Positions 2,726 to 43,312 of a DNA stretch of 64,000 nucleotides are shown here, in pieces. The position numbers were made by a program, and so were the translations under genes. The stretch lies in the IMG/VR virus record IMGVR_UViG_3300031949_000016, positions 22,692 to 86,691 of that record. One strand, written 5' to 3'. Origin of the DNA: a virus. Its lineage: Duplodnaviria; Caudoviricetes. Below the pieces are notes generated by a model, which saw nothing but the letters and a program-made list of their open reading frames with translations, was not told the origin of the DNA and made no database searches. Position 1 is the stretch's first letter, and the number at the start of each line of letters is the position of its first letter.

Positions 2726-3620
2726 GAGATAATCCCCATCCTGGGGAGGAATTGATGAACTCCTCAATCCGCGCCCTGATCTGATAGCCCAACAACTCGC
2801 CCTCTTTATCGTTCTCCTCCGCCGTCCCGTAATGATTCATGAACATCTTCGGAACGCCAATCGACAAAAGTGCGGCATTCACGACGTTAGTGACATCGTG
2901 TGCCATCGTCCCTCTATAGAACGGCTCGACAACTACCACCTTACCAGACCGGCAGTGGTCTATAATCGCCTCGAAATCGAACGGCACCACCGTCGTGTAA
3001 TACAACACCGTCACATCCAGATACTTCGTCGCCTCCATCACCCGATCCAGCATCGGCCCCACCGCGATGACGGTCGCCAGCGTTCCCCGCTTCACCACCA
3101 CCGCCTTCCCGAAATCGATCGGGCTGCAACTCATCGCATTGCATCGCTCACTCAGCCGGAAGTACGTCGGCCACAGGTCGTCATACGCCCACTTGAACAG
3201 CTGGTCGAACTCGTCCGGCGTCCCCGGCACCACAATCTCCATGACCGGCAGCGTCTTCAACAACGCCACGTCCCCCGGCGCATGATGCGTACACCCCAGG
3301 CTAGCATAGTCATACGATGCGCCCACGCTAACGATATTCACCGGCAATGATTGGTAGCACACATCGTCCTTCAACTGCTCGAAACACCGCTCCACCGCGA
3401 ACGGCGCGATCGTATGAATGACGGGTCGCAGCCCCTCCATCGCCAGCCCCGCCGCCAATGACACCATCGCCTGCTCGCAAACCCCAACGTTGATCACGCG
3501 CGCCGGCCACTTTTCAGCCGCCTCCCGGAACCCCCACACCCCGATGTCGCCCAGCAGCAGCACCAGCCGCTTATCGTGCGCCATCAACTCCATGATCGTC
3601 TTAACGAATTGCTTCCTCAT
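2712..3620 (-). CDS. Transketolase-like protein, pyrimidine-binding/C-terminal half
   Basis: LLGDIG, INVGVCEQAMVSLAAGLAMEG, LGCTHH. Confidence 0.9.
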   Translation of the reverse strand: MRKQFVKTIMELMAHDKRLVLLLGDIGVWGFREAAEKWPARVINVGVCEQAMVSLAAGLAMEGLRPVIHTIAPFAVERCFEQLKDDVCYQSLPVNIVSVGASYDYASLGCTHHAPGDVALLKTLPVMEIVVPGTPDEFDQLFKWAYDDLWPTYFRLSERCNAMSCSPIDFGKAVVVKRGTLATVIAVGPMLDRVMEATKYLDVTVLYYTTVVPFDFEAIIDHCRSGKVVVVEPFYRGTMAHDVTNVVNAALLSIGVPKMFMNHYGTAEENDKEGELLGYQIRARIEEFINSSPGWGLSHVRL

Positions 3621-3650: not shown

Positions 3651-4493
3651 TCATTCCAACTCTGCCAGAATAGCCGTCAGTTCCTCTTTGTTCGGTGCCC
3701 GATGATGCCACGCCGGATTGTTCTCCATCTCCTTCACCCCGTTGCCCTTGATCGTGTTTGCCACAATCACCACCGGCTGATGCTCCGGCTGCCACTGCAT
3801 AGCCGCCACAATAGATTTATGGTCATGCCCGTTGATGCTCACATCGAACCACCCAAACGCCCGAAACTTCTCCGCGATATTCCCCATCCGCAGCGCCCGG
3901 TCCGTCGAGTGGTTATAGTCCACAATGACAGTAAGATTGCCTAATTCATGATGCGCCGCCAGCAGCGCCGCTTCCCAGATCGAACCCTCGTTGCACTCCC
4001 CATCACCCACCAGCACCACCACCCTACTTGCCCCATCCCCTTTGCCCCTTTGCCCCTTTGCGTGAGCCTCTTTTATCTTCAACCCTAACGCCATCCCCAC
4101 GCTCATCGGCAGCCCGTGCCCCAGACTCCCCGTGCTCGCCTCAACCCCCGGCACCTTATTCCGATCGGGATGTCCCCCCAGCCTGCTATCGAACTGTGCG
4201 AAGCCCTCCAATTCATCCACCGGAAAGAACCCCTTCTCGGCCAACACCGCATACAGCGCCAGGCAACCGTGCCCCTTGCTCAGTACGAACCGATCCCGCT
4301 CCTCCCACCGTGGCTTCTGTGGATCGACCCGCAGCACCTTGTCATACAGCACCCACACCAAGTCCAGGATACTCAGTGCGCTGGCGATGTGCCCCTCGCC
4401 GGCCTCGTATGCCATCTGCACGATCCGCCTCCGTAAATTGTTGAGCACCACCGCGCCACCCTCCCCTTGGAGTGGAAGTTGAAGTGCGTCCAT
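3651..4493 (-). CDS. Transketolase-like protein, ThDP-binding N-terminal half
   Basis: GHIASALS, RFVLSKGH, STGSLGHGL, GDGECNEGSIWEA...DYN; start at ATG 4493 behind GGAG. Confidence 0.9.
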   Translation of the reverse strand: MDALQLPLQGEGGAVVLNNLRRRIVQMAYEAGEGHIASALSILDLVWVLYDKVLRVDPQKPRWEERDRFVLSKGHGCLALYAVLAEKGFFPVDELEGFAQFDSRLGGHPDRNKVPGVEASTGSLGHGLPMSVGMALGLKIKEAHAKGQRGKGDGASRVVVLVGDGECNEGSIWEAALLAAHHELGNLTVIVDYNHSTDRALRMGNIAEKFRAFGWFDVSINGHDHKSIVAAMQWQPEHQPVVIVANTIKGNGVKEMENNPAWHHRAPNKEELTAILAELE

Positions 4494-5973: not shown

Positions 5974-8900
5974 TTATTGTAGCGCCATCTCCCGCATCAC
6001 CCACTCCTCCACACTCCCATACGGCTGCCCCGCCTGATTCCACGCCGCCGTAAACTTCTTCATCGCCGAACTGTTTGGCCGTCGCCCACCGAAGATCCAC
6101 GCCACCGCGATGTTGCTCAACTCCGGCGGAATCGTATACCCCGCGTCGTACCAGTCCGAAGCGGCCGGCGTCTCGTTCTGAGCGTACATCTTCGCCGTCT
6201 CGTCCAAATACGGCTGCACCGCCGGATACTGACCCAGAAAACTCCGTCTCCAATCCCAATACACCTCAATCGCCGGATTGTCTTGAAGGAACTGATCACG
6301 CACGCGCACCGCCACCGCATTCTGCATCTTCCCCGCACTCCCCACGTACCCCGCCAGTGACGGATGCTGCGCCTTCCATCGATCCACCGCATTCCAGTAC
6401 GCCGTCAACTCAGGATGCGCCGCCTTATACTGCCGCCGCTCCGTCGACCCCTTCGGCAAATCCAGATACTCGCCAATCACCTGCTCGATGTTCGGCCACT
6501 GCGCCCGCACCAGTCCCACGAAATCCGTCACCGCCGCCGGCGCCCCAGTGAAGTCCAACTTCTCGTGGTCGAGATTGAAATACTCCGTCTGCGCATCGCT
6601 CACATTCGGCCAATTGAACATCGCCTCGCGCAGGGTGTAGTACCCCTCGATCTGCTTCGCCGTGATCGGGTCCGTCCACTCCACCGGCAGCGGCTTCACG
6701 TCCGGCCCGTTCGGGATCATCATGCCCATTGTCGCCGCCCACTGCTGCAGCGTCTCGATCGGAATCGAAGAGTACGAGCGCGTATCCTTGTTCAGGAACA
6801 TCGTATCGAAATCGTTTCCGAACGCCTGTTGCACGTCCAGCCGGTAAGCGTGCGGCATGTTCGCCCACTTCTCCCACACCTTGTCGACCAGGAAATTCCG
6901 AAGCCGATCGTCCTTGTTGTCGTACAGCGCCAGCCGCGCCTCGTATTCGGGATGCTCGTTAAAGAACTTAGTAATCGACCCCGTGTCGCCGTTGTTCTGC
7001 GCCTGCCACGCCGCGCTGTACAGCAGCCCCAACTCGCGTTGCTTCTTCTCGCCTTCGGGATAGACGCCGACCGCCGATCCGAACAAGCCTCCGAAGCCCG
7101 TCTGCCAGAAATTCATCGTCGCCTCGCGCGCCACCGCAATGTCGAACGCCTGCCCCTTGCGCTCGATCATCGCCGTCCGCGCCTCGTCTGCACTGATCAA
7201 CCCGTCGGCCGCCATATTGCTGATCTCTCGATCGATCCGGTAATCCGACCATTGATCGAACACCGGCAGCCCCAGCGTCCTCGTCACCCCATTCACCAAA
7301 TTGTCGCCTACGCCCAGCGCATTGCTCACCGCCCGCGCGTATCGCGTCAACGGCACCGGCGAGTTCCGTTCGGGATGTCCATTCAACTGGTTGTACGCCA
7401 TCGACAACGGCAGGTGGGGCGACAACACCGAGAACGCCAGGTCAACCCCGTCGACGTCGAGATTCGGATCCTGCTTCTTCGCCTCGGCGATCGCCGACTC
7501 CCACAACGTCCCGCTGTGGCTCTCCAACGCAGACCGCACTTGGTCGGCGTCCTGCTGGTCGTCATCCTGCCAGCCCGTCAGAATCCTATCCGCCTTCGCC
7601 GTCAGCCGGCCCTCCTGCTCCGCGAACTGCTCCCACGGATAAATGAAGTTCTGGATCGGCAATCCGATCTTCATCGGGTCTATGAAGATTCCTCCCCCCA
7701 TCCAGTCCGGCAAAAACGGTAGTGGAATCTTGATCCTTCCCGCCAAACGGCTCGGCGTCCCCTCGCGCGTCACCTCCGTGTTCAAAAACTTATTGATTCG
7801 GAAGTACGACGCGACGAGGCTTGGCTTGTCGATCGAGTGCAGCGCCCACTTCATCATGGACTGGGTAGTCCAGAACTCATACGGGAACACCATCCCCAAC
7901 AGCGTGTTGTACTTGTAACGCCGACTGTAGTTCAACAAAGCCGCATCGCGGAGCCACTCCCCCCACTTCATCGCGCCCAAATTCGTGTTCGACATGTTGC
8001 CGTATTGCTGGTCCAGCCAGCGATTCAGACCCAATTTAGCCGGCTCGTCCAACGTCTGGCCCGTCTTCACATACGGGCTTTGCAAACCCTCGATCATCCT
8101 GCTTTCCAGCGCATCGATCACCGGCATCGTCTGCTTCTGCCACACATCCATTGCCGCGCTCGCGTAGGGCGTCGGCATCGACCCGATCTCGTTCACGATC
8201 CCCGGGGGCAGTGGCAAACTCCCCGGCTTGATAATGGGTATCGCCGTCGTCGTCCCATTCGGATTCTCAACCGTGACTTGCTTGGGCGTCACCTGCTTCA
8301 CAACCTTATTGCCCTCGCTCGTCGGCACACTCTCGCCCTCGGCCATCTTATACAGTTCCAGCCCGCCGGTCGGCGTATCCACACCCCATAGCGCCTGCTT
8401 GCTCAACTGCCACAACGTGTCCTTCTTCGGCGCTTCGATCGCAAACATCGAAATCTGGTGTGGGTCGGCGCTCGCCTTGACTCTCGAAGCGTAGTCCCGA
8501 AGTAGTATCCCGATCTTCTTCCCGCTGCGACCCAAATCGTCCAGCGTCACCAGCACGTCCGTCTGGAACGGCGTCAAATCTTTCTCGAAGAGTTGCATCT
8601 GGCCCAGGTAGTGCGCCACCGGCGTTCCCTCCGCCCGCAGCGTCGCCAACTTATCCACACTGATCGCCAGGTCGTTGGCGATGCTAAACTCGGCATATCG
8701 GCTTCCGCTGGCAATCAATCCTTCCGCCCTGGCTACGTCACCCAAACTCGCCATCATCCCGTTGGCGATGCGCTTGATGTCGTTGTCGGTCGATTCAAAG
8801 AACACCCGCACCAGTCGTTGCCCGGCCTCGCCCGGATAGGTCTTTGCAAACAGCGCCGCCGTCATCCGCTTGATCCCGTTCTGCGAAAGGTTGCCGGCCG

Positions 8901-11900
8901 CATCGACCACATCGCCCCGCTCCGTCTCCGGCAGCGCATCCACGAACGCCCTGACTGCATCAATGTTCGCCGGCGACCGCAGCGCCTGCTCGATCGTCTG
9001 GCTCTCCCCGATCGTCAGACTGTTCAGGATGACGGGCGATAGAATCCGCGCATCCCGCTGCGCCAACTCGCTCGCGCTCATCGCCGCGCTCGGCGTCACA
9101 TTCGCCGCGCGCGCAAACTCCATCCTCTCCGCAATGGCATCCTGAGCGGAGCGGAGCGCAGTCGAAGGACGCTCCCTCACCAGCACCGGCCTTGTCATCT
9201 GCCCCACCTGCTCCGGTGCAAACCCATACTCTCCCGCTCTGGCGATCAGTTTATCCCGATAGTCCGCATACTTCTCCGGCGCGTTGTCCGCCACCATCCG
9301 CAGCGCCAGCGTCCGCCCGTTCCCGCTCTCCACCACGCCGTCCGCGCCAACGATGGGCGCTCCACGATCGATACTCCTCACATCGTCAAGGTAAGCTGCC
9401 GACTCGAACTTGCTCGCAATCTCCCGCACCTGCAACATGTTCACCGCGTTCGCCCGATCGCGTGGTTGCAGTTCCGGCGGATACGCCGCGTTCACGTTGC
9501 CCACGCTGTCGTGACTGGCGATCAAGTCGTCCATCTCCACCAACCGCCAGCGCAAATCGTATGTCTTCGTTGGGTCGGCCCCGCGCGCCGTCGTCGTTCC
9601 GCCCATGAACCCCCGCCCGTTCGGCGCTGGTATCCCCATCACCGCCGCCGGCACCGGATCGCCCACCTGATACAACACCTGCCGCGGCGTCTGTTCGATC
9701 GGCGACTCCACTTGATCGTCGGCCAAATCCTCCGCCTTCATCGACGCTTCCGTGTCGGCGTTCACGCCGTCCACCTCGGCCACCTTCTCCGCCGCCACCG
9801 TCTGCAGGTTATCCATGTACGCCTGCAACTCCGGCATCCGTACCGACAACTTCTTCCACTCATCTTCCTCTGGGAACGTCTCGCGCAGCCCGGCCTCCGC
9901 TGCCGCCACGCTATTCCGCGCCGCCGTCGCATTACCGCTTGCGGTCTGTGAGGCGATAGTGATGTCGTCGGCAACGTTGCGATTTACAATCTGCCCGACC
10001 GTGACCGCGTTCTCTTCACCCAGCCAGAAGCCGCCCATCCGCCGGTAGATGATGGTCGGATCATCCCGAAACGCAATCTGCACATCGAACCACGGCCGAT
10101 CCACAATCCGCTTGCCGTCCCGATACTCGTTCCGTCGCGCCGTAACCTTGACCTCGAAGCCGCTCGACGTGTCGCCAATCGTCCGCCACACCGCGCCCAG
10201 TTGCTTCGCGTTCTCCTCATTCATCGCCTCGAAATTCTTCTTCACGTAGGCGATCACTTCGTCGCCGGCCTCGCCTACCTTCTCGATCGCCTTCCCGTTC
10301 AGCGTCGCCCCGAACTTCTCCGCGCGCCTGGCCGCCACCTTCTCCGCCGTTGCCGCATACTCCGCCGCCTGCTTCTCGTAGAACGGGATGTCGCTCTGCG
10401 CCCGCGCCAATCGCCGCTCGTAACTCTTCTGCCGGTCGGCAAACTCGTTGCGCGCCATCTCCAGCAGCGTGTACCGGCTCGACACGTCCACGTATTCCAG
10501 CGCGCGCGGGTCGTTCCACGTCGAGACGTAGGACATATCGAAGCCGCTCGCGCCCGCGTCCGGCGTCTCGAACGAATCGATCGTCACATCTCCGCTGAAG
10601 ATCTGGTTCATCAGCTTGGCCTTGTTGACGATCAAGTTCCAGTTGAAACTGTCGCCGGAGTTTTCCAGCATGTAGCGGTGAATCTGTACGCTCTTGTCCC
10701 ACGCCTTGTGCAGGTTCCCCGGCCGCAAGATGCGACCCTCACTTTGCGTCAACTCACTCGGCTTGTACGGCACATCCACTTCATGCACCGCAAATAAGCG
10801 CCGCTGTAAGTTCACGCCCGTCCCCAGGCCCTCGTAAGTCCCGAACACGATGCGCACCTTGCCGTCGTTCACCGCCTCAAATAACTCGCGCCGTGCCGCC
10901 ATCGCCTTCGCCACCGCCTTGTCACTCGCCCCGCCCAGTGGGTAGTCCTGGATGTAGGCGATCTCTTCTTTCGGCACGCCAGCCTTGATTAATTTGTCAC
11001 GCACGTCGTTGTAGATGCTCAACTTCAGCCGCGCCGCCGCGCCTTCCTCCGCCGCCATCGTGTGCTCGTACACCCCGCGATTCAGGAAGATCAACTGCGC
11101 GCCGTTGTAGTCCTGCGTCTGCTTGTAAATCTCATCCACGTTCTTGACCAGCGTGTTGACCTTGCTATCGCCCGCATCGGCCGCCGCCGCGTCGTACAGC
11201 CGGATGTCCAGCGCCACGTCTTTGGCATCGTTCATAATTGTAAAGGCGTAATCCTCCGCCTTCTCGCCAGGACGCGGCGGTTTAATATTCTTCCACCGCC
11301 GTTGAAAGTCCTCGTTCAGCCTGATCTGATACTCCGTCTGCGGGATCACATGGTTGATAATGTCGAACGCGGGCCGCTCCAAACTCAGCATGTCCGCCGT
11401 CTGAATGTCTGAAAACTCGAACAGCAGCGGCAGCAGCGCCCGCCCGTTCTGGTATTCTCGGAATCGGTTGACGCGCGTCCAGGCCCCGCCTGTCGCGCTG
11501 CGTTCCGGCCGGCCGTAGATGTTCGCAAACATCGCCGCCCACGCATTGAACGACTCAATGCCCATCGCCTTCAAGCGGTCGCTGTACAGGTACTTCATCA
11601 TCGTGTACAGTTCGCTGCCGCTGTTGCTGAGCGGCGTACCGGTCGCAAACGTGCTGCCCCCGCCCCGGCTCTGCAGGTACTTCAACTTCATATACAGGTC
11701 TTCGGCCCGCTGGCTGCTCTTGCCGGTGCTGCCCAGCCCGCGCACGTGCGTCGCCATGTTCGTGTCGATCGGCAAATTCTTGAACTTGTGCGCCTCGTCC
11801 ACAAACATCTGGTCCACGCCCAAATCTTCAAACGTCAAGCCCCGATCGCGCCGCGCCTCCAACTTCAAGAACTGCTCCTCGACCTTCGCCTCTTTCCGGG

Positions 11901-14900
11901 CGATCGCCTTCTCCTTCTCCTTGACGGTCTTCCCTTTCTTCCTGGAAACACGCGCCTCTTTCGCCGCTTGTTCGGCCGCCGCCTTCTCCGGCGTGCGCAG
12001 TTGTTCCCCCTCCTTCTCGATCTGATTTTTCAATCTCCGGATCGACCGATCGAGCGCTGGGTCTTGCTGCCGCAGGTCTCGCTCACTTCCGTAACTCGCC
12101 GCCTGATCGTTTAACTCGTCCAGCAATATCTTCAGGCTGTCGATCCGCTCCTGCTTGTAGGCATTGAACGTCTCGTCGCGCACCGGAATCAGCGTAAAGG
12201 TCGAGTGCGGCACCAGCACCGCGTCATACTCACCCGCCGCGATCTTCGCCATCATCAGCGTTCGCCTCGCCTCGTCGCTGATGTCGCGCGCCGTCAGTTC
12301 CAGGATGTTGGCCGTCGGGTACATCTGGTGGAACTCTTTCGAGAAGTCGGTGTAGTTATCTTTCGGCACCACGTACATCAGGTTGTGGCGCAGCCCCATC
12401 CGCCGCTGTTCCATGCCGATCCCGATCATGATCCGCGTCTTGCCCGCGCCGACATCGTGGAACAAGCCAAAGTTGGGCGTATGCACGCCGCGCCAGATCG
12501 CCGTCAACTGTGCGTCTCGCAGCGGCTCGATCGTCTCGCTCATCCCCGGTAATCGCTGGTCGGGGTAGACCTTTCGCCCATCGTACTTCCGGTTCACGTT
12601 CGACGTAAAGGTGTCGTTGTACGTCTTCTCCAAATCGGCCCGCCGCGCCTCGTCCGTCCACACCCACTTGTCAAACTCGTTCTCGATGCGGGTGGCTACC
12701 AGTCGCGCCGCTTCTGTCTCTTTCGCATTGATGACACTAACCTCTACACCCGCGTCATTCTTGTAGGTATCCCGCACCTCGATCTTGCGCCCGCTCAGAA
12801 TCGAATCCACTAAATCAATCCCGCTGCGCCGGTTCGTGCTCCACTTCGCCGCCATCTGGTTCGATCCGCGCGCCCATTGTGGTGCCGCCATCACCCAATC
12901 GCCCGTCTCTGGAATGTAGCGCAGCCATTGAGCGCGCGTCGCGTCGTAGCCATAGTTCGCCAGATGCGCCACAAACTCCTGCACGTAGGCCGGTTTGATC
13001 CAGCCCGCGCCCAATTTCACCTTCATCTTGTCGTAGCCGATCCAAGCCGGCTGCGCCTTCTGCAATGCCGCGACGTTGCGATCGTAGTCGGGGTCGGCCT
13101 TCGCCAGCAGTTCCGCCTGCGCCAACTTCTGCCGCACGTTCCCGCTCAGGTATTCGTCGTCCGTCACCCACCCCGCTTCCGGGTCGTGATACACCAACGC
13201 CCCTAATTCGTCGGCCAAGGTCTGTACATCCTTGCCCGTCATGCGCGTCATCTGGTCGAAGTCCACGCTGCCCCTCGTCAGCAACGAGATCGCCAGCGCG
13301 TCGTGTGCATTCTCCGCCGTCGTCGGCAACCCGCGCGGCTTGATCTTCGTCAGCAGCGTTTCCTTTTCGATCTTGCCGGTGGTCTCGTTCACCTTCTCCA
13401 ATGACAACATCAGCGGATAGTCCGGGTCATCCGCGAACAGCCGCCGATTCGATCGCTCGTTGAAGCGGCCATGCTTCTTGACGTAGGCATCATACGCCGC
13501 GTCGAGTGATTGCTGTGCCGATCTCACATCCGTCTCTGGCCGGGCCTCGCGCAGCGCATCGATCACGTTCTGGTACGCATCCCGCACCGTCACGTAATCC
13601 GGGTATCTCGCCAATGCCTGATCCCAATCGGCCGGCTTCACATCGGCTGGCTTCTCCAAACCCTTTAGCGTCCCCTCCACCGTGTACTGCCGGATCTGCC
13701 CCTGGTCGTTCTTATAGATCGCGTTCGGCTTGCGCCGCTCGCCCGCCGCCCCGCGCTTCCGGCCAACGATCTCCGCCTCCATCTCGGTCGGCAGCAAGTG
13801 CGTCCGCGTCCGAATCACATCCTCCGGCAGCCGATCGATCGTCTCATTCAACATGCGTGGCAAATCGTCGGGGTTGTCCAGTTTCAACGTCAACTTGGCG
13901 ACGGCGTTCATATCCTTCTGGAAGTCTGTCTTACTCCGAAGACTGTATTCATCGAACCGCTTGTACATCGTGGACTCGGCGGCATTGCCGATCATCATCT
14001 CTGGATGATCGCGGTAGTATTCGTTGATCTGGTAGACCTTCCCATCCTGGCCCGTCCAGTCCACCACCTTGAACCACTGGGTATCCGTTGGCGTGTCGCC
14101 GATCAGCCGCTTGCGCAGGAAGATCACGTCCGTCATCACCTCGGTGCCGGCATTCTGCTTAAAGGCCGTATCTGGCAATCGAATCGCCCCTACAAAATCA
14201 GCCCCGTTCGTATGCAGCCATTCGCGCACTCGTTGGCTCGTCGGCGCGTCCATCGTGAACGAACTCGTGATGAAGGCGATCATCCCGCCCGGCCGCACTT
14301 GATCCAACGCCTTGGCGAAGTAGTAGTTGTGGATCGACCCGCGCAGCCAGTGCGGGCGACTCAGAAACTCAGCATCCGCCACACCGAAGTTTCCGAACGG
14401 CACATTGGAGATTGCCAGGTCGAAGTAGTTCTTGGGCAGAGGGAGATCCTGATACGGCGAGATGTGATTGCCGGTGCCCTGATACAACTGGTTCAATATC
14501 CGGCCCGTCAGCGTGTCCATCTCGACCGTTACGACTTTTGACTTGGCGAACAGTTCCGGCGGCATCGCGCCGATGAAGTGGCCCACGCCGGCCGCCGGTT
14601 CGAGTACCTTGCCGCCGTCGTAGCCCATCCGCTGCACCGCCTGCCACATCCCGCTGATGACATCGAACGAGGTGTAGTGCGCGTTCGTCGTGCTGGCCCT
14701 GGCCGCGGCGTATTCCTCCGGCGTCAACAGATCCTTGACTTCGGTGTATTGGTCATACCACTCGTTATTTAGATCGCGGCGTGTCTTGTAGTCCCAGTGG
14801 GTTCGCGCAGCGTTCTTGTTGTCGAAGACCTCGGCCAATCCACCCCAGCCGACGTAGCGCACCAGCACCTCTTGTTCTTCGGGTGTGGCCTTGCGCCCTT

Positions 14901-17900
14901 CCGCCTCAAGTTGTTTCAATAAGCGAATGGCTTCGATGTTTTCGCGGTACTTCGTCTTCTTCCCGCCCGCGCCGAGGTGATCGGATGCGGTGATGTGGTA
15001 GTTGTTGCCGGTCGCCGCCTGCGGGGTATTGCGGGCGTGCACGACCGGCGGCAGGGTTGCCCCCTCTCCCTCATAGGGAGAGGGCTGGGGTGAGGGTGCT
15101 ACTCGCTCAGGCTCGGCTCCGGCAACTCCTCCGGCTCCGGCGCGTCTTCCAGCGGCCAGTCCGCCTTCACCAACTCCAGCGCCTGGTCGTAACTCCGTCC
15201 CTGGCTCATTAACTCCGCCAACTGGTCCTTCGACCGCTGCGCCAGGCTCGACACCAACGGCAGCAATTGGCCGTCCTGCTCCCACTGGTCCACCACCTCC
15301 GGCCGGTGGAACCACCACATTTCCAATATCTCCTGGCCGAACGGGGATAGCCTCCGGTATAAGTCCTGCAACTTCGGTGGTAGTGGGTTCCAATCGTTGA
15401 GCATTGATGACCCCCTCAAATTCCTTACGGTAGCTGTCGATCACCTTACGACGGAAGCCGCCCATCTGCTGCTGGCCGACTTCGGTGAAGTCACCCGCCG
15501 TCGCCGGCTTCCAACTGCCCGTCGCCCGATACTCGACTAAGGGCGAACTCGTCCAGTTCCCGACCGGCATCTCGTCTTCCCACCGCTTCACGCGCATGAT
15601 GTCGTTCTTCGCGCGGATGTAGGCGGGGCGTTCCGTAACAATTATATCACCGCTCGGCGTCACCTCACCGGTCAAATGTGTGACAGTTTCCTGAACAGGT
15701 ACAGCCTCTGTTGTTACATGGGTAAGTTCATCTTCGTTAAATGAATAGGTTCGCTCCGCTAGATTCAGACCTTTCGGTTCGACCATGACGCGCCCATTGT
15801 CCGCGTATCCAGTCACGACATACGATTCCATAGCGCCACGATTAACAACATCACCAACATTAAACTTATGTGCTACTGGAACCGCCGCCGCCTCATTCAA
15901 TTGCCCGGCCACCCGTTCCGCCTCAGCCTGTGTCACATCCTGAATAAATGATCCACCCTGCTCACGATCTAGAACAGCGTATAGCCTTGTCCGAGAATTA
16001 CGCACCACCTCATAGCGTGCCGCCACCGGCACAGCCTCCGCCTCAGTGATCAGTCGATCCTTATTGACCACCCTCTGAATCGCGGCCGATAATTCCTTAG
16101 AGGTATCAACCCGTGACGTACTCACGTCGCCCTTGCGCGTGTCGTAGGTCATGTATACACGCTCGCCCGACCTTGACCGTGTATCGTGATAAACCCTAAG
16201 ATACCCGCTGTCTGATACGTAATCTTCATTGAACCACTCCGGCGGCTTGAATGCCGGCGCAACTCCCTCTCCAAGCAAGGGAGAGGGCTGGGGTGAGGGT
16301 GAAACCTCTTCCAGTTTCGGCGTCTCCTTCAGGAAATATTGTGCCTGCTCGACCAGCTTCTCATTCGGCATCGCCAATAACTTATCGTAGAACTCGCCCA
16401 CGTCCTTATTCTGCCGAGCCATGTGACGGGCGATCAACTCCTCGCGCGTGTCGACCAGCGTGCCATACGTCTGTCCCTCTGGACTTCGATACGCAAAACC
16501 GTCCACCCGCCACTCACTTGTGCCCTCTACCCCCCTTGGAAAGAAATCATTCCGATACCAGTTACCATCATCACCCTTACGGGATGTTACTTCGACAATA
16601 TCCGGCGCCCGTGCCCGTGTACTATCCGCAATCCTACGCGCGATGTTCTCGCGTCCGGCCATCACTCCCTCGCCCCCGAAGGCCCCAGTTCTTGCGGGGT
16701 AGGGAGAGGGTTGGGGTGAGGGTACAACTTCCGCCGGCGTCACCGGCCTCGGCTCCACCATCTCCACCCGCTCTAACGGCACATTCTCAATCCGGCCAAT
16801 CGGAACACCCCGCACCGCCACGATCTGATCGACGTTGACCGATACGTATGTGTCAGTACCGTACACGTTCAAATCAATCGTGCCCGTCAATTCCTTGCCG
16901 TCTCTCGTCGTCCACTTTACCCGATCGCCCTTCTGAAACGCCGTCTGCGCCACATGCCTGGGCGTCACCTGGTCAGGCAGTACCGCCCCCCGCCCCGCAT
17001 CCAGGAACTTCTGCACCTCCGCCACATCAGCACTTACCACTTCCAATTTACCACTTACTTCTCCCCCTTCCACCACCCCCGCGAACTTCTTCGCCGCCGC
17101 GATCGTCCGCTCGCTCTGCTTTGCCCACCACAACTTTTGCGGCTGGCTCCATCGGAATCCCGCTGCGTGCAATTCGTCCAGCGTCGCCTGATCCGGCTTG
17201 TCGTCAAAGATGATCTCGACGCCACTCTTCGCCTTGTTGTACTGCATCCGCACACCCGTCGCCGTCGCCACCGGATTGATCTGATCCGCCGCATTCACCA
17301 CCGGATCGGGTGTGATGTACTTCGCCGCCTCCTCTGGATTCTGTGCCGTCCACTCAGCAATCACGCGCCGCGCCTCAGCCGCCGACTTCTCGTAACCCTC
17401 TGCCTTGCGGATGTCCTCCGCTCGTGGGACTGGCGTTCGCCGTCGCCGTGCGCTGTCACGCGCGCTGCGGGCCTTCTTGAGATCGTATTGAATGATGCGC
17501 TCAAAATCCGCTGGATCGTGGGGCGTGCCATTCACTTCCGGCCACCTCACCACCGCCGGCGCTTCCCCAACCTCGTGCTGCAACTCGCCCATCCGTGCCG
17601 ATACATCCGTCCCAACATCCGTCTTAACCCGCACGTACACACTCTGCCCGGCGTCCGTCCCGTATATCGACTGCCATTGCAACGTATCCACGCTCGAAAT
17701 AACGCCGTGCTTCCCGTCCTGCAAGGAAACCCGATCGCCCACCTTAAACGCCTCATCGGGTGGATTCACCACGTCGGCGTGTACAGCCTCAGTCACTTCC
17801 ACTCGATCGCCGCTGGGCTGGATCAACTCCTCACCCACCTCCGCCGGCGAGACGCGCGTCTCCGGCTGGCTTGGCGCATACTCGACTTCCTTCGATTGCT

Positions 17901-20900
17901 TGATGTATCCCTGACCGTCGTCGCCTTGAATGAATACCCGCCCATCGGCTTCCACTCTACCGCTGGCCGTTCCCGTGCCATACTTCCCGGTCTCCCGGTC
18001 AACCCACTCCAGCCGATTCCCGCGCTCGCCCAGCCGTGAACCTCGCACGTATGGCGACTCAATCAGTTCGACCTGTGCCAGTTTCCATCCATACTCGTCC
18101 GCATACGCCGTCATCGTTGACTTGCGTGCCGCGCCCAGCCGTGTCCCCATCAGCTCTTCAAAGTCACGCGCCCGTATCTCCCGCCACTGCTTCGTCGCAT
18201 AGGGCTTACTCGGCTCATCGCTCCACGCCACAACCGGATCGCCGTTCTCGTCCCACCGCACCACCTTCCCGATGTCGCCGTTGTTCCGCACGAACACCGG
18301 ACGATCGGCCGCCAGGTTCGCCTCATCCCAACCCGTCAACCATTCCTTCCAGCCCTCGCTTGGCATCGTGCTCGGCGGCACCCGTGGCACGCCGCGCGCA
18401 AACGCACCCCGCCCGATCTCTCGTGCTGCCGCTACTGCAACATATCCCGTTGCGGCTTCGGCCTTCGTCACCAGAAACGGGTAATCCGCCAATACTTCGG
18501 CCGGAACAGGCAGACCTTTCTCAAGTGCATCCCCGACAGCCGCCTCGTGCTTCGCCAGCGTTAAGACTCTAGGATCATCGAACCCTTCGCCTTTTTCTAA
18601 CCACCCGTCACTACGACCACGCACATACTCAAGGGCTGCTTTTCTAAGTCGGGTCTCTCCCTCAGAGTCCTTGAATATATTCCACGGCTTAGATAGAAAC
18701 TCGATCGCGCTCTGGCCTTTCTTAAGATTCTTTATTCCGCCGCCTAGTACCCTTGAAACCCACTCGGCCTTTTTAGTGGCGACTCTCTCAAGCCACGGTT
18801 CAGCCGTAGCTTCATCTGGCTTGATGTATCCGATCTCGACCAGCTTATCTCGGCCAATACCCGCTACCGAATCTTCCACTTTTGCCAACGCTTGCGCTTC
18901 TCTCTGCTTACGAATGTCGCCCTGTAACCATTCATCACGCCTTATCTGCCACGGCTCTTTAGCCGCACCCGCCGCTACTTCCCCGCCGGTGGCAACACCA
19001 CCTCCAAATGCCCGCCCGCCTGCGCCAACCCCTGCGCCTTCAACTGGTTCAACCATTCCACCAGGTCGTTCCCCTCTGGCGCTGCGTTCTCCGCTGGCAA
19101 TTCGGGCGGCTTTGTCGGCGGCAAGTCCTGCTTCGGCAATGGTCGCATCTGTCCCGTACCCATAACTGAACCTCACTCCCGTTGCTTCGTGCGTGCTCCC
19201 GTCGGGATTCACCCAACGGACTGTGGCATGATTCAATCGGTCGCGCACCCGCTGCATCGCGGCCTGCGCCTCATCCACATTATCGAACTGCGCGTAAAAC
19301 TCGTCGCCTGAAATATGATAGGTTTCAATCCCTTCCTCACGCAGCGCCTGCGCCTTCGCCCGCAGCAGCGCATCGCCGGCCCCGTGCCCGAAGGTATCGT
19401 TCACCCACTTCAACCCGTCGACGTCAGAATGGACCTGAATCGCGCGCTTGGCCACCAGGTGATAAGCCGTCACGCTCGGCGCATTGCTCACCGGATTCAC
19501 CAATATCTGATCCCGAAGTATCTGGATAGCCTCGGCCCGATCCGCAGTAGTCATCTCATCGATCGACGCTCGCAACGCCACGTCCACCCGCTTGTTATCG
19601 ACCACCACCGGCACCAGATCGGATTGAACTGGCTTCACCCAACGTCGTTGAGCCTTCTTCTCAAGAACTGGATAATCCGCTAGAACCTCGGCAGGAACTG
19701 GTCGCCCGTCATCAATGGCCTTATTGACAGAACCCGCGTGTATTTCCTTGAAGTGCTCGATCTCTGTTTTTCTATCCTTTGTATCAAGGATGTCTGGACG
19801 GTCCCTGAATCTCTCAAGTTCTTCTTGCCAGCTATCCAACGCATATTCATCGCGCCGAATCTCCCACGGCGCTTTAGGCTTGACGAAGGTTGCTGGCACA
19901 GGTGCCACCTCACCAAACATCGGCCCCGCTTCCCTTTGCGGCTTTGCCCCTTTGCGTGAGACCGCCCCAAACTCCGGCCGCGTCTCAAACCCCGGCAATC
20001 GCTCAACCGGCACAGCCTCAGCCGGCGCAAACGACTCGACCACCCCACGCCGGCCAGCCCCGCTCACCAATGGCAAATCCTCGCCCAGCGGGAACATCGC
20101 AGCCTGTTGAGGCGATGTCCTGAACGCCTCCGCCCGCATCTGCTGGAACTGCGCCGCCACCTGCTCCGGTGCCTGAACCACCTCCGGCGCAACGACTGGC
20201 TCTGAAACAATCCCCGTCCTCTGGGGGGACGGTTTCATAGCCTCAATCTCCGCCGGCGTACTCGCCACCGCCGTAATATCCTTGCGTGGCACCGTGATCT
20301 CGCGCCCGCTATCCAGCACCAGCTTCGCCCGGCCCGGCGTGAATACGTCAATCACCTTCCCGATCTCGTCCAGCCCCGTCACTGCCACATGCGCGCCGAT
20401 CAGCGATCCGTCGCTTACGTCCGGCCCCGTGAACAAATCCGGGAACTTACGCTTGAGATTCGGATACTGCCCGTCCATCACCTCCGCTCGCACCGCTACC
20501 ACCTGCTCCAGATCGACCGCATCCCCGCGCCTGAACGCATCCAGCAGCGCACCCTCATACGTCATCCCCGTCTGCATCATCCTGCCGCCGCTGTCGAATG
20601 TTCCCGTATCCATCAACGGCGACACAATCGCCAGCACGGGGAAGCCGGCCTGCTTCGCCGCCGCCAAACGACGATGCCCATCCGTTACCACATGCCCGCC
20701 GTCGATGTGTTCCACCACACGAATTGGCGGAGCGTTCCTGCCTTCTCTCAGCCACGCCGCGTATCGATCCGCATCCCATCCACGACCCTGTTCGTTGCCT
20801 TCGACCATGTGCTCGGTCGGCCGCAGCGTATCAGGATCAAGCAAGCGCACCTGCTCGATCTCGTGCCCGTATATTCCGCCATACGCATCGTCAATCACCC

Positions 20901-23900
20901 ACTGCCCAGGTCGCAGCGGCAGCCGCTCGAACACCGTGCTCGGCACCGTCTTGCTCGACGCAAGGATACTCTCACCCTGCACATACTGACCGGAGTAGGC
21001 CGACCGATAGTCGCTCTGCTTCACGAACTGATCGACCCGCAGTCCGTGCGGTACATTCGTCATCGGATACGCCGGCTCGACTTCCGTCAGCAGCCGGTCA
21101 TACACCGCCCGCATCTCCGGCGTTAAGTTGATGTCGATGTCCGTACCCTTGATGCGCTTGTAGACCTCGACCAGCCACTTCTTGAACCGCTCAAACAACT
21201 GCCTTAACTGTGGCGTCGGCGCGTACCCGTCCACCATGTACCGCTCGAACCCGCGCGCCCACTCCTCCTGTGCCCCGTTATCCAACCCCATGCGGATCGC
21301 CTGACTGCGTTCAGTCCCCTGCCCCACGATCTCCCCACGCCGATTACTCACAACCGTCACGCCATCGCGCTCGACTGCTTCCCATCCTGTCGGCAACGTG
21401 TCGCTATTCGCCACGATGCGCCCATCCACCAGCGCCACATCCAGGCCGTGCTCCGTTTTCAGCCAATCTCGGAATGTCCCAACGTCATCCAATGCCTGCT
21501 TGCTCACGTGGCTCGCATCGTACAAATCATACAGGAATCCATGCGCCGCCTCGTGCACGAACGACGATGTATCCCGCGCCTCAAAACCCCGTATCGTCCG
21601 CTGCCACCCGTCCACCAACTCAAACGCCGCCTTCGGCGCCCTGCCCCCTCTCCCTTCGAGGGAGAGGGCCGGGGTGAGGGTGGGTTCCATCTGGAACAAC
21701 GGCGTCCCATACTGATCCGTCAATCCCCGCGCCGCCGGATACTTCTTCGCCTCCTCCACCACCGCATTCAACCGATCGATCTGCTCTGGCGTCTTCTCCG
21801 GCCACGCCGACGGACTCACGAACCGGCCACTCTTGATCGCCTGATCGACCTCAGCCTGTGTAAACCCAGTCTCGCTCGCCCACTGTGCAAATTTCTCAGG
21901 CCCTATCGCCCGTGGCGCTTCGCCAATGACACCCGCCCACAGAGAATAAAATTCCTCGGCCGGCAAGTCAAACGTCCGGCTCCATACCCCCGCCTGTGCA
22001 TCCATCAACGCCATCAACGCCGCCACCTTATCCCCGTAGTCCGGCGTCGCCGCGTCATACCACTTCGCCGCCACCTCGTCAGCAAACCGTTGCCGTGTCC
22101 ATGCCGGCGCAGCCGCAGGACCATCACCCGGCAGCGGAGCCACCAACTCCGCCGCCGCCACATTCACATCCGCATCCGCCTGCACCACCTTCGCCACCTG
22201 ATCCGTAGCAGACAGAGCGCCATCGGCCAACCGCTTCGCCGCGTCCGTCTCAGCCATCTTGCGCGCGACGTCCGCCCGCCGCGCCTCGAGCCGCATGTTC
22301 ATTGACTCGACTGCCTCCGTCAATGGCACCTCCGCCGCCGTCCCGTAAGGATCAAGCCCCTTCACCTTCCTGTCCTTATTCACAGCCCGCAGCAACCCCT
22401 GCACCCCCCGATCCCAGCCCGTCGCCTTCAACGCCGCCCGATCCATATTCGCCAACACCGGCACCGGCCTAACCGCAGTCGTACCAGCCGACAATATCTC
22501 ATTGGCCCGCAGCGGCGTCATGGCATTGACGACATCGCTTGTGTAACCAAGATCGTACAGCCGTTGTCGCATATCGCGCGTGATCATCACCGGCACGCGC
22601 GCTTCCCCCTCTGCGCGCATCTGTGGACTAACCATCTCCTCCGCCAGCGCCGCATCCTGTGCCGCCCGCAACTCCTCCGGCGGTATCGCCTCCGCCCTCT
22701 CAATCGGCGGTTGACCCGCGGCTGCCCGCGCCGCGTTCACATCCGGCAACACCTCCACCGGCGTCGGCACGTGCACCGGCGCAGGTCCAACCGGCGCGCG
22801 CTCAGGCGCGAACGGCGTCCGCCCGTTCACCGTCTCAAAATCCGTAGTAACGACTTTAGTCGTTTCTATCCCCGGCTTAATCGGCATCACCTCCATCACC
22901 CGATGCCGCGCCTCCATCCCCTGAATCATAATCATTCGCCGCCTGGTCGTCCGTTCCTTATTGAACGCCAGCCAGCGTTGGCCCTTGATCTTTCGACCCT
23001 TCACATCCTTCATCGAATCGCGGAACGCCGCCACCGCCCGCATATCCTCGTCGTTGAACTTCCTGACTGTCTCGCGCCAGTTCGCAAACGCATCGCCCGT
23101 CGTATCCCCGAACGCCCGCTTGAACTCCGCCGACAAATACGCATCGACCCTAGTGTTGATCGCCAGTTGATCATCGGCCAACTGCGTATACAGATTGTTG
23201 AGAACGTTCTGCGTCTGAATCCACGCCTCGTCTGTGCGCTTGTCCGCGAAGAACTGCGCCAGAATCTTGTTGCGTTCACCGATGAACGTCTCGACTCTCG
23301 CCCGCTTATCGCGCGCCGCCGTCAGCCAGTTATCGCTCAAATTCAAGCCGGCGTCCTTCATGCCCGTCTCGATGCCCCGGTACACCGCGTCCTCATAGTC
23401 GAAGTATGTCTTCCAACTCTGAGCATCCTTCTCCCGCAATTGCTCGATCATGAAATCGCGCAGCGGCTTCTTAGGCTGCTGCTCGATCTTCGCCCACTCC
23501 TCGTCATGCCGCAGCATCGTATACGCATACGTATCAAACAGCCGCGTCTCAATCCCGTCGATGGAATCCAGCGCCGCGCCCACATCTCCGGCCTTAATCG
23601 CTTCCATCGCGTGCGCGCCGAACTGCTCCGCCTCAACCTGCGCCGCCTCGTTCACCGATTGTTCGCCACGCGCCCGAACGTTATCGAACGCTTTTCGAAT
23701 GTGGCCGTCGGTCGGCTTGTCCGGCAACTTACCCAGTTCGTCGTTGATCACCTGATCCAATCCGTCAATCGACAACAGCCGTGTGATCTCGTCGTCGGCC
23801 AATCCCAGGTCACGCGCCACCTGTCCGATGTATTGGTGCAAGATCGGCTTCGGTGCCGCCGCAAAGATCGCTCCCCGGATCTCGCGCGGATTCGCCCCGG

Positions 23901-26900
23901 ACTCGACCGCCGCATACACATACGCCGGATCGATCCCGAAGCCCCGTAACTGTCCTTCCAACTCCGGCGACATATAGTCGATCGCCTTCCCCCTCCGCCA
24001 GTTATGATTTCTGAAATCGAAGAAGCCCTTCACCACCGCCCGCGCCGATTGCCAGCGTTCCACCTTCTGCGCCGCCGCCGTCGCCGGCATCTTGCTAGAA
24101 ATCTTATGCCCCAGTTCCGTGATCTTATGCACCAGATCGGTTTGCTGAAAGCCCGCCGTCAATTCCCGCTCACCAACCTTGTACGCCTTCACCCCCCACG
24201 CCTCGGCGTCGTTCAACTCGGACAAGTCTGCCGCACTCGCGCCGGCCCGCAGCCGTGATGGATCGAGTCCCATGTGCCGCATCCGCTCGATGCCGGCCTT
24301 CACGCCCGTCAAGCCCCACACCCCGCGCGCCATCATCGTCACTTCGCCGTTCCATACGTTGTTCATCAAAAAGCCCAGGTTCGGCCCCATCAACAGCGTA
24401 CTCTCGACGGCCTTCACCGCGCCCGCCAACCGCTGCGCAAAGCCCGGCGGCTGCACCTGGAACGTCTTCGCCGCCCACAAACCCGTGTTCTCCAGGATGA
24501 TGGAGAACAACGCGGCCTTGTACTGCTCGTTATTGAACGGCACCATCCGACCATCTTTGTCCACTTCCTTAAACAACTTCTGGATGGCGACCAAATCGTC
24601 CGCCGTCGCATCAGCAGCGCCAATCTTCAGACGCTCTCCCTTCGCCTTTGCCCCTTTGCCGCTTTGCGTGAGAACCTCAGCGTCCGCGAACTCGCGCAGA
24701 ACCGCCTTGCCATCACCCGCCTTGATCCGTGCAAAGATACCCGCCGGCGTGTCATTCAACGCCCGCGCCGCAGTCTCGATCGCGCCGGCCTGCAATCGGC
24801 TGTTCTTGAAGCCGTCGAGCAGATCCGTGTACGACTCCGCCTCGCCCAGCGACCGCACATGCACCCGCCCCTCCAGCGTCTGCAAAGCGCCGACATACGC
24901 ATCCCGCCCCGCGAAGTCCTTCGGTAGTTTGCTCGGATCAGACCCGATCGTAGACAGCACCGCCGCCGTGATCTTGTCGGCATACAGCGGATCGTTCACG
25001 TCCATCCGATTGTTCAACTGTGACTGCCAGAAGTTGAGGCTCTGGTGCATGTTCTCCTTCGCCTCGCTCATCGGCTCCAGCGTGAACAGCCCCTTGATGC
25101 CCTTCGTCTCGGCGTATGTCCCTGTCTCCGCCAACTTCGCCATCGTCTTGCCCACGTACAACTTCTGTAACCAATTCAGATCGCGCGCCGCCACGAAGTC
25201 GGACCGGAACGGGATCTCGCTCGTGATGATCCTTCGATAATTCTCCAGCGTCTTCACCAGCCCGCCGGTGTAGGCGATGGTGGGAAACGGGAACTTATCC
25301 ATCTTCAACCGATGCGGCGTCGCTGATAGCGCCTTCGCCATCGCCTCGTCTTTCGCAAAGCGTGCGTACAACTTCAATGCGCCCCGCTGCCCCGCGCCGA
25401 TGAAGTTCAGCGGATCGAGCGTGATGTTCAGCGCCAGATCGCGGATCTGCCCCGGCGCTCCGAACGTCGCCGCGGCCAGTGCCTTCACCTGCTCCGGGTT
25501 CGCGCCGTTGATGATCTGCTGCCGTGCCCACGCAATCGCATTCACGCCTGGCATCGGTGCCGGTCCAGTGTCCCAGTCCACGAACTGCGCGTTATCCTGC
25601 CAGCCCCCCCACGGCGTATACGCCGGCTTGCCTTTCACGATCGCATCGGCCAAGTGCTCCACGCCGAACACGCCGCGCACGTCGATGTTCGCCGCCGTGT
25701 ACGTCAACTCCGCCGCATTCCACGCCGCCGCCAGGTTCTCCCCGAACGATTTGCTCTTATCAAATCCATACTGCTGAGGATTGACCAGCGACGCAATTCC
25801 CTGCACACCCGTGCCGATCAATCGTTTGGCCGTCTCAGCCGGCGCGTTCAATACCGTCAACGCCACGCCCGGCAGTGATTGATCGTATGCTCGCTTCGCC
25901 GACGCCAGTTCTTCCGCTGTCTTTGCCGTCTCCTGCATTTGCCGCATCTGCTCGTTCTGGATCAACATCCCGATCGTGCCAGCCGCCCCACCGAGCGCCG
26001 CGCCCAGCGGCCCTAAGATCGCCCCTCCCACCAGCGCCGCCGGCAAGCCACCCTGCAGCGCCGATTGGCCCAGCTGTACCCACGGGTTGCCCATCAGCCG
26101 ACCGAACCCGCCCCGCATCGTTGATTCAGGATCCCCCTCCGGCATCCCGAACTGCTGCCCCTGTGGTTTCCCAACCTCCTCCGGTGTCGTCAGCGGCGTC
26201 ATGCTCACCATCGGATTCAGCACGATGCGCCGATAAACCTTGCCCTTCTCCCGCCGATACTCGATGTTCCAATCCTGCCCCGGCGTGCCAGGGTCGATCA
26301 CGAATCCGCCCTGCTCGTCCAGCGTCTGGAACGGTGAGTAGGGCGCGTATGCTTGCGCCTCCTGATCGGTAGTCGTAGTCGTCGGCGCTTGCAATCCCAT
26401 CCTCGTCGCCGGATTGACCACGTTCGCAATCTGCATGATGCCCGTTACTTCCTCTCCCTTGTAGGGAGAGGGTTGGGGTGAGGGTGTTTCCGCAATCGCC
26501 AACTTCGGCGCAGTCGGCATAGTCGAAGACACCAGTTTTTGCGGTGCCGGTGCCTTAATCCCCAGCATCTTGAACTGTGGTGCCGCCGCCATCCGCTGCC
26601 CGAACGTCTCCCACGCCGGCCGCACCGCCTCGACCGCCTTCATCACCTGCTGGTATCGGGTCAGGCTTTCCTTGTCCGGCATCACGTACAACTTACCGTC
26701 GTCCCTGATCTCGACCTTCGACTTGGCAAAGTTCAACCACGTCGGCGCACGCTGCCGCACGTCCAGCGGTTGATGTGGAACCTTCAACGATTCCCACAGA
26801 CGGCGCGATTGATCCGGCGTAATATCCGGTGGCGCGATCACGCGATCAGTCGTCTTAGGTTTGATCGGGATGAACTTCCAACGAGGTACAGGATTCGGAT

Positions 26901-26919: not shown

Positions 26920-26936
26920 TTGCTTCTCCAAAATAA

Positions 26937-26998
26937 AACGCGCCGACTGTTTGGGCAGTTCTGTGTGACTGCCCAAAGTCGGCGCGTTGTTGTCCGTT
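26937..26998 (-). promoter_or_regulatory. Conserved leader hairpin, copy 1 (attenuator-like)
   Basis: AACGGACAAC-AACGCGCCGAC...GTCGGCGCGTT-TTATTTT directly upstream of the giant gene. Confidence 0.55.
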
Positions 26999-41884: not shown

Positions 41885-43312
41885 TCAGAAATCCTTTCCC
41901 CCCAGCGCCTCCCGCGGCAGCACCATCTTAGCGATCGGGTCTGTCCCCAACGCCTGCAGCGGCGTCAACACCCGCGGCCGCGGCACAATCTGAGTGATGG
42001 CGTAGCGTGCAGCGTCGTAGGCATGATCGTCTGCGTGGCTGTCCACATCCTCCACATTCACCCCATCGTATGGCAGGTTCGCCAACTGCTTCGCCAGGTT
42101 CACGCAGTTCTCAAACACCAGCAGCCCCGGCTGTCCGTCCGGTAAGTTCGCCAGCAGCGTATCGACCTTGCGCTTGCCCATGATCCGATTGTTATCGCCC
42201 TTGCTCAGCGCCACGCCCTCGGCCGCGTACTCGTCCGCCGTCGAATACACCCGATCCTCAACGCTCTTCTTCGTCCACATGCTCGGGTCAGCGAACGTCG
42301 CCGCGATCTTCTCGCCCGGCAGCGTGTAATCCTTAATCTTCCGCGCCTGCTGCCGGTCCGTCAGCCCCGCCTCGTACAGCTCGCGGTAGAAAATGATCCG
42401 CCCCGTGTCCGGGTCCTTCGCCAGCCATACGCAGGCGAACGGATTGCGCCGGCCCCAATCGATCCCGCGCCACCTCGTCCACGACGCCGGAATCTCGAAC
42501 GCCTTGACCACGTGCATAATGTAGTTAAACATAAACGCCTGCCCCTCGAACACATCCCAGTCGCCGTCCCGCCACGCCTGCCCCAGCGGGCCTTTCAGCG
42601 ATTCGAGATAGTCCCGATACTCATGCTGTGTGAAAGGATTGTCCTTATAAGTTCCAGGAAAGAACCTTGTCTCCGACTGGCGCTTCTCGCGCCACGGCAT
42701 CACATACAGATCCTTGAACGCCTTGTGTCCCACCCCGCCCGGGTTAGCGCTCTCGTACAATCGCGGGCGCCAATCCGACCGGCTCGTGCGCAGGCTGCCC
42801 CGGATCTTCTCGCGCTTCTCCCCGCTTAACTGTGTCCCCTCCTCTATAACAATCCCGTCGTACTCGATGCCCAGGTATTTGTCGATGTCGTTTTCGTCCT
42901 TGTACCCCCCGATCAAAATCCTCGACCCATTCCGAAACACCACCCGGCCGGCTGTCACCTCGCGCGCCACCCGCCCAAACACACGGCGGATGAGATCGTC
43001 AAAACTCTCACCCGCCGACTTCATTACCTTCCGTAAGAATAAGAACTTCAATCCGGCGCAGCGTTGGCAATCGTCCAGCCCCGCCTGCCCCATCAACCCA
43101 AATGATTTACCTGGCCCGCGCGCCCCGCCGACTCCGATCATCGTCGGCCCGCCAGCCTTGTCCGCCTCCCGTGCTGCTACATGAAACGGCAGCAACCAGG
43201 GCAGGGCGACGTATCCAAATTTTACAAACCGATCAACCTGATCCTTCGCCAGTCCCGCCGCCGCCGCCCGAGCCAGATACCGCTCAACCAGGATTGGATC
43301 CAGGCTTGGCAT
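41885..43312 (-). CDS. terL: Terminase large subunit
   Basis: GGARGPGKS Walker A, IVIEEG Walker B, SANPGG, nuclease GIDWG and DDHAYDAARY. Confidence 0.9.
   Translation of the reverse strand: MPSLDPILVERYLARAAAAGLAKDQVDRFVKFGYVALPWLLPFHVAAREADKAGGPTMIGVGGARGPGKSFGLMGQAGLDDCQRCAGLKFLFLRKVMKSAGESFDDLIRRVFGRVAREVTAGRVVFRNGSRILIGGYKDENDIDKYLGIEYDGIVIEEGTQLSGEKREKIRGSLRTSRSDWRPRLYESANPGGVGHKAFKDLYVMPWREKRQSETRFFPGTYKDNPFTQHEYRDYLESLKGPLGQAWRDGDWDVFEGQAFMFNYIMHVVKAFEIPASWTRWRGIDWGRRNPFACVWLAKDPDTGRIIFYRELYEAGLTDRQQARKIKDYTLPGEKIAATFADPSMWTKKSVEDRVYSTADEYAAEGVALSKGDNNRIMGKRKVDTLLANLPDGQPGLLVFENCVNLAKQLANLPYDGVNVEDVDSHADDHAYDAARYAITQIVPRPRVLTPLQALGTDPIAKMVLPREALGGKDF

Follow-up and report, generated by a model that had tools for sequence, protein, structure and literature searches.

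We analyzed a 64,000-nucleotide stretch (the window) of a virus record (Duplodnaviria; Caudoviricetes), comprising positions 22,692 to 86,691 of IMG/VR record IMGVR_UViG_3300031949_000016. A giant open reading frame (ORF) of 7000 codons without a stop occupies 5974..26976 on the minus strand and encodes a predicted polyvalent protein. A small ORF within it (15099..15404, minus strand) is very probably a functional, independently initiated gene nested in the +1 frame of this phage gene, so that 303 nt are read twice. Comparison with 131 loci argues that the segment is a conserved dual-coding region, as a preliminary description made from the sequence alone had proposed. The small protein is best described as a divergent relative of TnpV, a protein of transposons and conjugative elements.

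Layout and start signals of the nested gene

The nested gene has 101 codons and a TAG stop (15101-15099), lies on the same strand as the giant ORF, and is read one base downstream of the giant frame. Its ATG (15404-15402) is preceded by a Shine-Dalgarno (SD) sequence, GAGGGGG (15411..15417, minus strand), with a 6-nt spacer. The SD site is itself embedded in codons of the giant ORF, with the giant-frame reading ..E-G-V... The dual-coding segment proper (15102..15404, minus strand) corresponds to giant residues about 3858-3960, which form a low-complexity linker rich in Gly, Ala, Pro, Arg, and Glu. The intact small ORF, its own ribosome-binding site, and the low complexity of the giant frame had all been noted in the preliminary description and were confirmed here.

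Codon usage distinguishes this segment from the rest of the giant ORF. A log-likelihood score trained on the remainder of the giant ORF is negative for frame 0 and positive for frame +1 over 15404-15100, and it is positive for frame 0 on either side. There are 26 alternative-frame open segments of at least 80 codons in the giant ORF, and among them only the nested ORF scores above zero (+36 vs −26 to −92).

Start signals were compared across 63 nested genes from related loci, which begin with ATG (n = 58) or GTG (n = 5). An SD core located 4–12 nt from the start has at least 4 nt in 97% of them and at least 5 nt in 70%. The corresponding values are 10% and 1.6% for other +1-frame ATGs of these loci (n = 3866). 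A +1-frame stop occurs no more than five codons before the start in 26 of the 63 loci (median of 8), often only one or two codons before it. Translation start signals belonging to the small gene itself are seen both in the window, as GAGGGGG-N6-ATG, and across the relatives, as SD enrichment.

The codon-usage score prefers +1 over the giant frame in one other stretch (19026-19206, minus strand). It overlaps a 62-codon ORF (18975..19163, minus strand) with a GAGGT-N6-ATG start, and in this stretch the giant frame reads as a Gly-rich linker. A homologue search with this ORF returned no match. The switch at 19206-19026 may be a compositional effect of the Gly-rich linker, or it may mark an orphan second nested gene.

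Conservation of the nested layout

Related loci were gathered using only the methylase module of the giant ORF and blind to the small gene. The anchor was the start of that module (NYHIT...YVGWGG...NVPFGN; 13900..15036, minus strand), and the resulting set comprised 80 viral contigs and 80 bacterial genome contigs. The methylase-helicase part of the giant ORF has 42%–57% identity to these 160 loci, the ORFs of which bear Eco57I, SNF2, LPD38, and PBECR3 domains. The closest cellular relatives of the methylase module are in metagenome-assembled genomes (MAGs) of Caldilineaceae and Anaerolineales (53%–57%). The small gene was then sought in six-frame translations with a family hidden Markov model (HMM) followed by a second-iteration HMM, and results were counted per locus.

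A nested homologue was identified in 131 of the 160 loci, on the same strand, always in the +1 frame, and always within an unbroken giant ORF. Both frames are intact over the whole overlap in these relatives, as they are in the window. The viral contigs gave 72 loci with this layout, none with another layout, and eight with no match. The genome contigs gave 59 loci with this layout, four with another layout, and 17 with no match, five of which have less than 1 kb of upstream DNA. Neither in-frame nor +2 copies were found inside the giant ORFs of the 160 loci.

Two types of spacing were apparent. In the window, in most viral loci, and in Caldilineaceae MAGs, the distance from the end of the small gene to the methylase start is 0–430 nt. 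Firmicute genomes carry a canonical tnpV about 2.8 kb before the methylase start, likewise nested in the +1 frame, and this arrangement was found in 56 genome loci. One example is a Roseburia locus (L131) in which the nested ORF matches PF14198, the Pfam family of TnpV, at 148.8 bits and has AGGAG 8 nt before its ATG. Nested copies were also found in Chloroflexota (L086, L087, L170, and L171). In the phylum of the Caldilineaceae MAG that carries L086 (G001), the family was present in only three of the 401 genomes searched.

Other searches did not extend this set. No relatives of the segment just upstream of the nested gene (15405-16200) were found in viral contigs, a scan of metagenome contigs with the alignment of closest homologues yielded no confirmed locus, and the small proteins had no tblastn match in the GenBank collections of phages and plasmids.

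Two loci show a different placement. In L014 (7483-7860) and L123 (7381-7758), a TnpV-like gene overlaps the end of a shorter methylase-helicase ORF by about 22 nt and follows it. L014 also has a nested copy upstream, giving two copies, one nested and one free-standing, in a single element.

Selection on the two frames

Openness of the giant frame was evaluated by resampling the synonymous codons of each small gene from the codon usage of its own locus. The probability of an open giant frame was 0%–2% in most loci and 6.5% in the window. Reducing the set to 23 clusters at 45% identity, each represented by its most conservative member, gave a joint probability of 10^-46.6. A small-gene codon that ends in T and precedes AA, AG, or GA would create a stop in the giant frame; there are no such codons at 2034 positions in nested genes, compared to 17% in the non-overlapped part of the methylase. 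T in the third position is also halved in other contexts (8.4% vs 19.4%), which fits avoidance of TNN codons in the linker, several of which encode aromatic or hydrophobic residues. The giant-frame peptide in the relatives is 85% G/A/P/R/E/S/T/D/Q and 11% hydrophobic, compared to 57% and 31%, respectively, in the methylase domain.

The small frame has the pattern expected of a gene under amino acid constraint. Differences per site at codon positions 1, 2, and 3 are 0.017, 0.010, and 0.057 for pairs with 95%–100% identity, and the order p3 > p1 > p2 is unchanged in all identity bins. In each bin, the small frame also exceeds the giant frame in amino acid identity. These two results argue that the sequence constraint sits on the small frame and that the giant frame is a hitch-hiker that is held open. 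Codon-position differences, stop avoidance, and resampling together point to selection acting on both frames.

Free-standing copies and the polarity of nesting

An Anaerolineales MAG provides two copies of an un-nested layout (L088, identical to L167, at 2758-3108, and L169 at 1468-1815). The small gene is free-standing in both, placed between an upstream gene and the methylase gene, and it keeps the same start as the nested copies. Frame 0 contains three stops across the small gene, which is the outcome predicted by resampling when read-through is not selected. Both flanking genes are in one frame, and the L088/L169 layout may be a secondary split of a giant ORF rather than the ancestral state. 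Any direction given to the nesting is provisional for this reason.

In the preliminary description, the small gene was ancestral and the giant ORF gained read-through across it. Codon usage, the p3 > p1 > p2 pattern, and the disordered, off-frame character of the giant peptide are consistent with that direction, and from these we infer that the small gene is older and that the giant frame ran across it. The nesting event is ancient and common to the Firmicute elements, and it did not occur recently in this phage.

Relationship of the small protein to TnpV

Homologues of the 101-aa product were sought in several ways. Word-indexed searching for homologues of similar length returned none. Exhaustive searching with HMMER, the kind of HMM search first suggested as a check, covered 1.84 billion representative proteins and identified 16 homologues at E ≤ 1e-3. 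The top three (P0003–P0005) have E values from 2.9e-18 to 7.1e-15 and 46%–49% identity. Nearly all homologues are free-standing proteins of 80–109 aa, and the alignment spans Met1 to the acidic tail. An AlphaFold2 model built from a 60-row alignment has five helices and a mean pLDDT of 86.3. The expectation of a folded helical protein was thus borne out by both the homologues and the model.

The likeness to TnpV suggested at the outset was recovered at the profile level and through intermediates. Alignment of the small-protein family to canonical TnpV with hhalign gave a probability of 83.8% and an E value of 7.9e-6 over the N-terminal 55 columns. PF14198 was matched by 32 of 60 family members, and no other family recurred. 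The gathering score of PF14198 in Pfam is 27 bits. The window protein fails this rule. Among relatives at the homologous nested position, L016 passes it with 28.2 bits and L131 far exceeds it, and others score 22.8 and 19.8 bits. With 101 aa, five helices, and a location on a phage, the window protein also has the general character of the family, which is that of small all-alpha proteins (about 85–125 aa) on mobile elements. These comparisons support its description as TnpV-like, in a distant and divergent branch of the family; it is not TnpV by the Pfam rule, and the wording "TnpV-like" is used because the window protein itself does not match PF14198.

Structural searches were less informative, and no solved structure stands out as a clear relative. 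Foldseek of the model against the PDB gave nothing at E ≤ 0.001. The top match in a wider structural comparison was 2apl_A (PG0816), with a Z score of 6.8 and a root mean square deviation of 1.6 Å over 59 residues, and it was set aside as evidence of relationship because a match of this kind is uninformative for helical bundles. The same protein, from Porphyromonas gingivalis, is a weak sequence match to the family profile in the same region (E = 0.39), and PG0816 may be a distant solved relative. Leads from a protein atlas were all below 0.9, and one cluster has TnpV in 11% of its members. Co-folding of the small protein with the N-terminal domain of the methylase was predicted with a score of 0.12, which is below the mark for a verdict.

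A PHROG profile labeled "endolysin" (phrog_938, 2185 positions) was matched by 10 of 15 family members at positions of about 2085-2160. The label is uninformative on the small-protein domain. The match could reflect an in-frame C-terminal fusion in some large phage proteins, or a PHROG in which unrelated segments are mixed.

Alternative explanations

Several observations weigh against a functional nested gene. The window protein has no direct match in Pfam (PF14198 gave none at E ≤ 10) or in PHROGs. The stretch 14700-16000 showed neither a sigma-70-like promoter nor an intrinsic terminator. No RNA run was listed among the sequencing runs that contain the sequence, and we infer translation of both products from comparative sequence data. 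The match near the C-terminus of phrog_938 indicates that in-frame fused forms may exist, which leaves a frameshift fusion a small probability. The giant frame would be open by chance in about 6% of cases in the window alone, and the case therefore rests on the comparative data.

A programmed +1 frameshift just before 15404 would produce, beside the full-length protein, a truncated product in which the N-terminal modules are followed by a TnpV-like C-terminus. The +1 relation in all nested loci agrees with this, as do the 12 codons by which the open +1 frame extends 5′ of the ATG in the window and the position of the phrog_938 domain at the end of a long protein. However, the junction conserves the SD sequence and the ATG rather than a shift site; a continuous +1 frame with a conserved shift site was not found, and no search aimed at shift heptamers was made. 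The upstream +1 stops described above are often one or two codons from the start, too short a distance for ribosomes to slip out of frame 0. The N-termini of the nested proteins align with those of free-standing homologues, the free-standing L088 and L169 copies have the same start, and common descent alone explains the constant +1 relation. Frameshifting is therefore improbable, and the small probability that we leave for such a product is owed to the hint of fused forms in phrog_938.

The giant ORF could also be a set of separate proteins with the small gene between them, with frame 0 open by chance or through an assembly error. The window alone allows for this at the chance level given above, there is a GTG codon after a palindromic element that follows the small gene, and one genome has the un-nested layout. 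Against it, the upstream part runs without a stop in all 131 nested loci, T-ending codons that would endanger the giant frame are entirely absent (0 of 2034; joint probability of 10^-46.6), and genes that truly are separate, those of L088 and L169, do accumulate stops. A Logan contig, an independent assembly of the probable source run (depth of 14), has no differences and no gaps over 14700-15900, which makes an assembler-specific indel unlikely. Separate translation units are very unlikely on this evidence. Even less should be expected of a relic, in which the small ORF would be what is left of a decaying gene after the giant ORF ran over it; only the giant protein would be made, and inertia or chance would account for the open small frame. 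Its attractions are that no RNA run was listed for the sequence and that the window protein lacks a direct Pfam or PHROG match, but the small frame is intact in 131 loci at protein identities down to 20%–30%, with the p3 > p1 > p2 pattern and a conserved SD sequence and ATG. Divergence on that scale would have cost a relic its frame and its start.

We therefore favor an independently initiated nested gene. Ribosomes that initiate at the internal GAGGGGG-N6-ATG would make a 101-aa protein of five helices and end at the TAG. Ribosomes translating the giant ORF would read the same bases in frame 0 as a disordered linker between the N-terminal modules and the methylase-SNF2 helicase module. The giant frame is kept merely stop-free and poor in hydrophobic residues, through an exclusion of T-ending codons from the small gene that is absolute before AA, AG, and GA. 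The arrangement is old, and it occurs in phages as well as in elements linked to Chloroflexota and in conjugative elements of Firmicutes. The small protein would be an accessory or handling factor that is made in the producing cell and works alongside the polyvalent protein. Such an accessory role is favored because the small gene is tightly tied to polyvalent genes.

The phage and its polyvalent gene

The source record is an 86.7-kb virus with a CheckV completeness of 93%, and the only sequencing run that contains the window sequence is a soil metagenome. A gene survey of the window identified a large terminase subunit (41885-43342, minus strand) and a large integrase of the serine recombinase type (49029-50594, minus strand; phrog_95, E = 8e-72), which together indicate a temperate phage. 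Helicase and methylase genes are also encoded. TnpV was first described next to the large serine recombinase TnpX, and the presence of both a serine integrase and a TnpV-like gene in the window, a co-occurrence of the TnpV/TnpX type, may be of interest.

The giant ORF contains GGDEF-like, ParB-like, N6-adenine methylase plus SNF2-type helicase, and ddrB-ParB modules. Pfam matches include ddrB-ParB (97.8 bits) and GGDEF (30.3 bits). The combination of ddrB-ParB, GGDEF, and methylase-SNF2 modules in one phage ORF places the predicted product among polyvalent proteins as defined by Iyer et al. 2017 (PMC5512222).

A 36-nt palindromic element similar to repetitive extragenic palindromic (REP) sequences is located at 15062..15097, 1 nt past the stop of the small gene. 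It has a 9-bp stem, a 5-nt loop, and a GGGGTGAGGGT tail on the plus strand, and its giant-frame reading is ..PSPQPSPYEGEG... The family consensus is CCCTCTCCC, a 5-nt loop, and GGGAGAGGG, followed by a (C/T)(C/T)GGGGTGAGGGT tail. At least eight copies occur in the window (15062-15097, 21646-21681, 26450-26485, and at 41358, 54977, 57375, 61829, and 62177), with degenerate copies near 16296 and 16719. Three to five copies are within the giant ORF. Their giant-frame reading is ..PSPQPSPYEGEG.. or ..TLTPALSLEGRGG.., and in these copies a palindromic element has been inserted in-frame into coding sequence. They resemble the Rickettsia palindromic elements. No REP-like element was found at this place in L086 or L087. 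The hairpin after the small-gene stop has a z score of −2.5 in the window, and across 60 loci the mean is −0.43 with six below −2. The hairpin is not general across loci and is not counted in the conserved module; the REP-like element is lineage-specific and lies outside it.

Comparison with known systems and implications

TnpV has been postulated to assist excision, from its likeness to lambda Xis, and in Tn4451-type transposons tnpV is described as a gene of its own (PMC3158075). Like the TnpV proteins of Tn4451/Tn4453 and Tn6104-6106 (PF14198), the window protein is small, all-helical, and on a mobile element, and its N-terminal two-thirds align with them. It differs in being shorter (101 vs about 118 aa), in lacking the "..LKA..M.WV..MN.." helix, and in having an acidic Pro/Glu tail. 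Unlike the tnpV of Tn4451, its gene is in a phage and nested in another gene. The nested tnpV genes of the Firmicute loci are closer in layout, with the same +1 relation, their own SD sequence and ATG, a low-complexity linker in the host frame, and both frames open. The window differs from these in having a 7000-codon phage gene as the host and Caldilineaceae as the nearest cellular relatives; its protein belongs to a divergent branch below the Pfam threshold, and the distance to the methylase start is 0–430 nt in loci of its type rather than about 2.8 kb.

Two other overlapping pairs are useful comparisons. In Rz/Rz1 of phage lambda, a complete small gene that has its own start lies in the +1 frame of a larger same-strand gene, and the two functional products are structured partners of one complex. 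The window has the same general layout. The host frame here is instead only the disordered linker of a giant multidomain protein, and it is the embedded gene that appears older and constrained. The comS gene in srfAB of Bacillus subtilis is also a small out-of-frame gene in a very large, multidomain, same-strand gene. It has 46 codons and is known from one lineage, in contrast to the overlap of more than 100 codons described here, which is kept across phyla and element types.

We found no description of a tnpV gene nested in another gene in the searchable literature. Iyer et al. 2017 described the polyvalent proteins of phages and conjugative elements, in which many conflict-related modules share a polypeptide (PMC5512222); that paper has no occurrences of TnpV, frameshifts, or overlapping genes. 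The window contributes a 7000-codon phage host gene, Chloroflexota-linked relatives, a divergent branch of the family right before the methylase, and an un-nested natural control.

To our knowledge, there are few long, fully nested same-strand gene pairs in bacteria and phages for which the evidence is good. This pair has an overlap of more than 100 codons, at least 131 divergent loci, and a distinct selection signature in each frame, and it therefore offers a clean natural case in which to study how one DNA encodes two proteins. The direction of overprinting, in which a giant gene appears to run a disordered linker over a pre-existing structured gene, is rarely documented. The family is largely absent from predicted proteomes, with 16 relatives (E ≤ 1e-3) among 1.84 billion predicted proteins compared to copies in 131 of 160 loci by six-frame search, and gene callers that bar nested genes hide it. 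The tie between the TnpV family and polyvalent methylase-helicase proteins gives a concrete place to seek the function of TnpV.

A broader reading is possible, and we offer it tentatively. The nested pair might be an ancient cross-phylum module found in soil and gut phages as well as in Firmicute conjugative elements and Chloroflexota-linked elements. The small protein would then be a partner that the transferred methylase-helicase polyvalent protein requires (for example, a chaperone, packaging adaptor, or regulator of activity), and the overlap would lock co-inheritance and co-expression of the two. If this were true, few long same-strand overlapping pairs in prokaryotic mobile elements would be as widespread, and a whole protein family would have been systematically hidden by gene callers.

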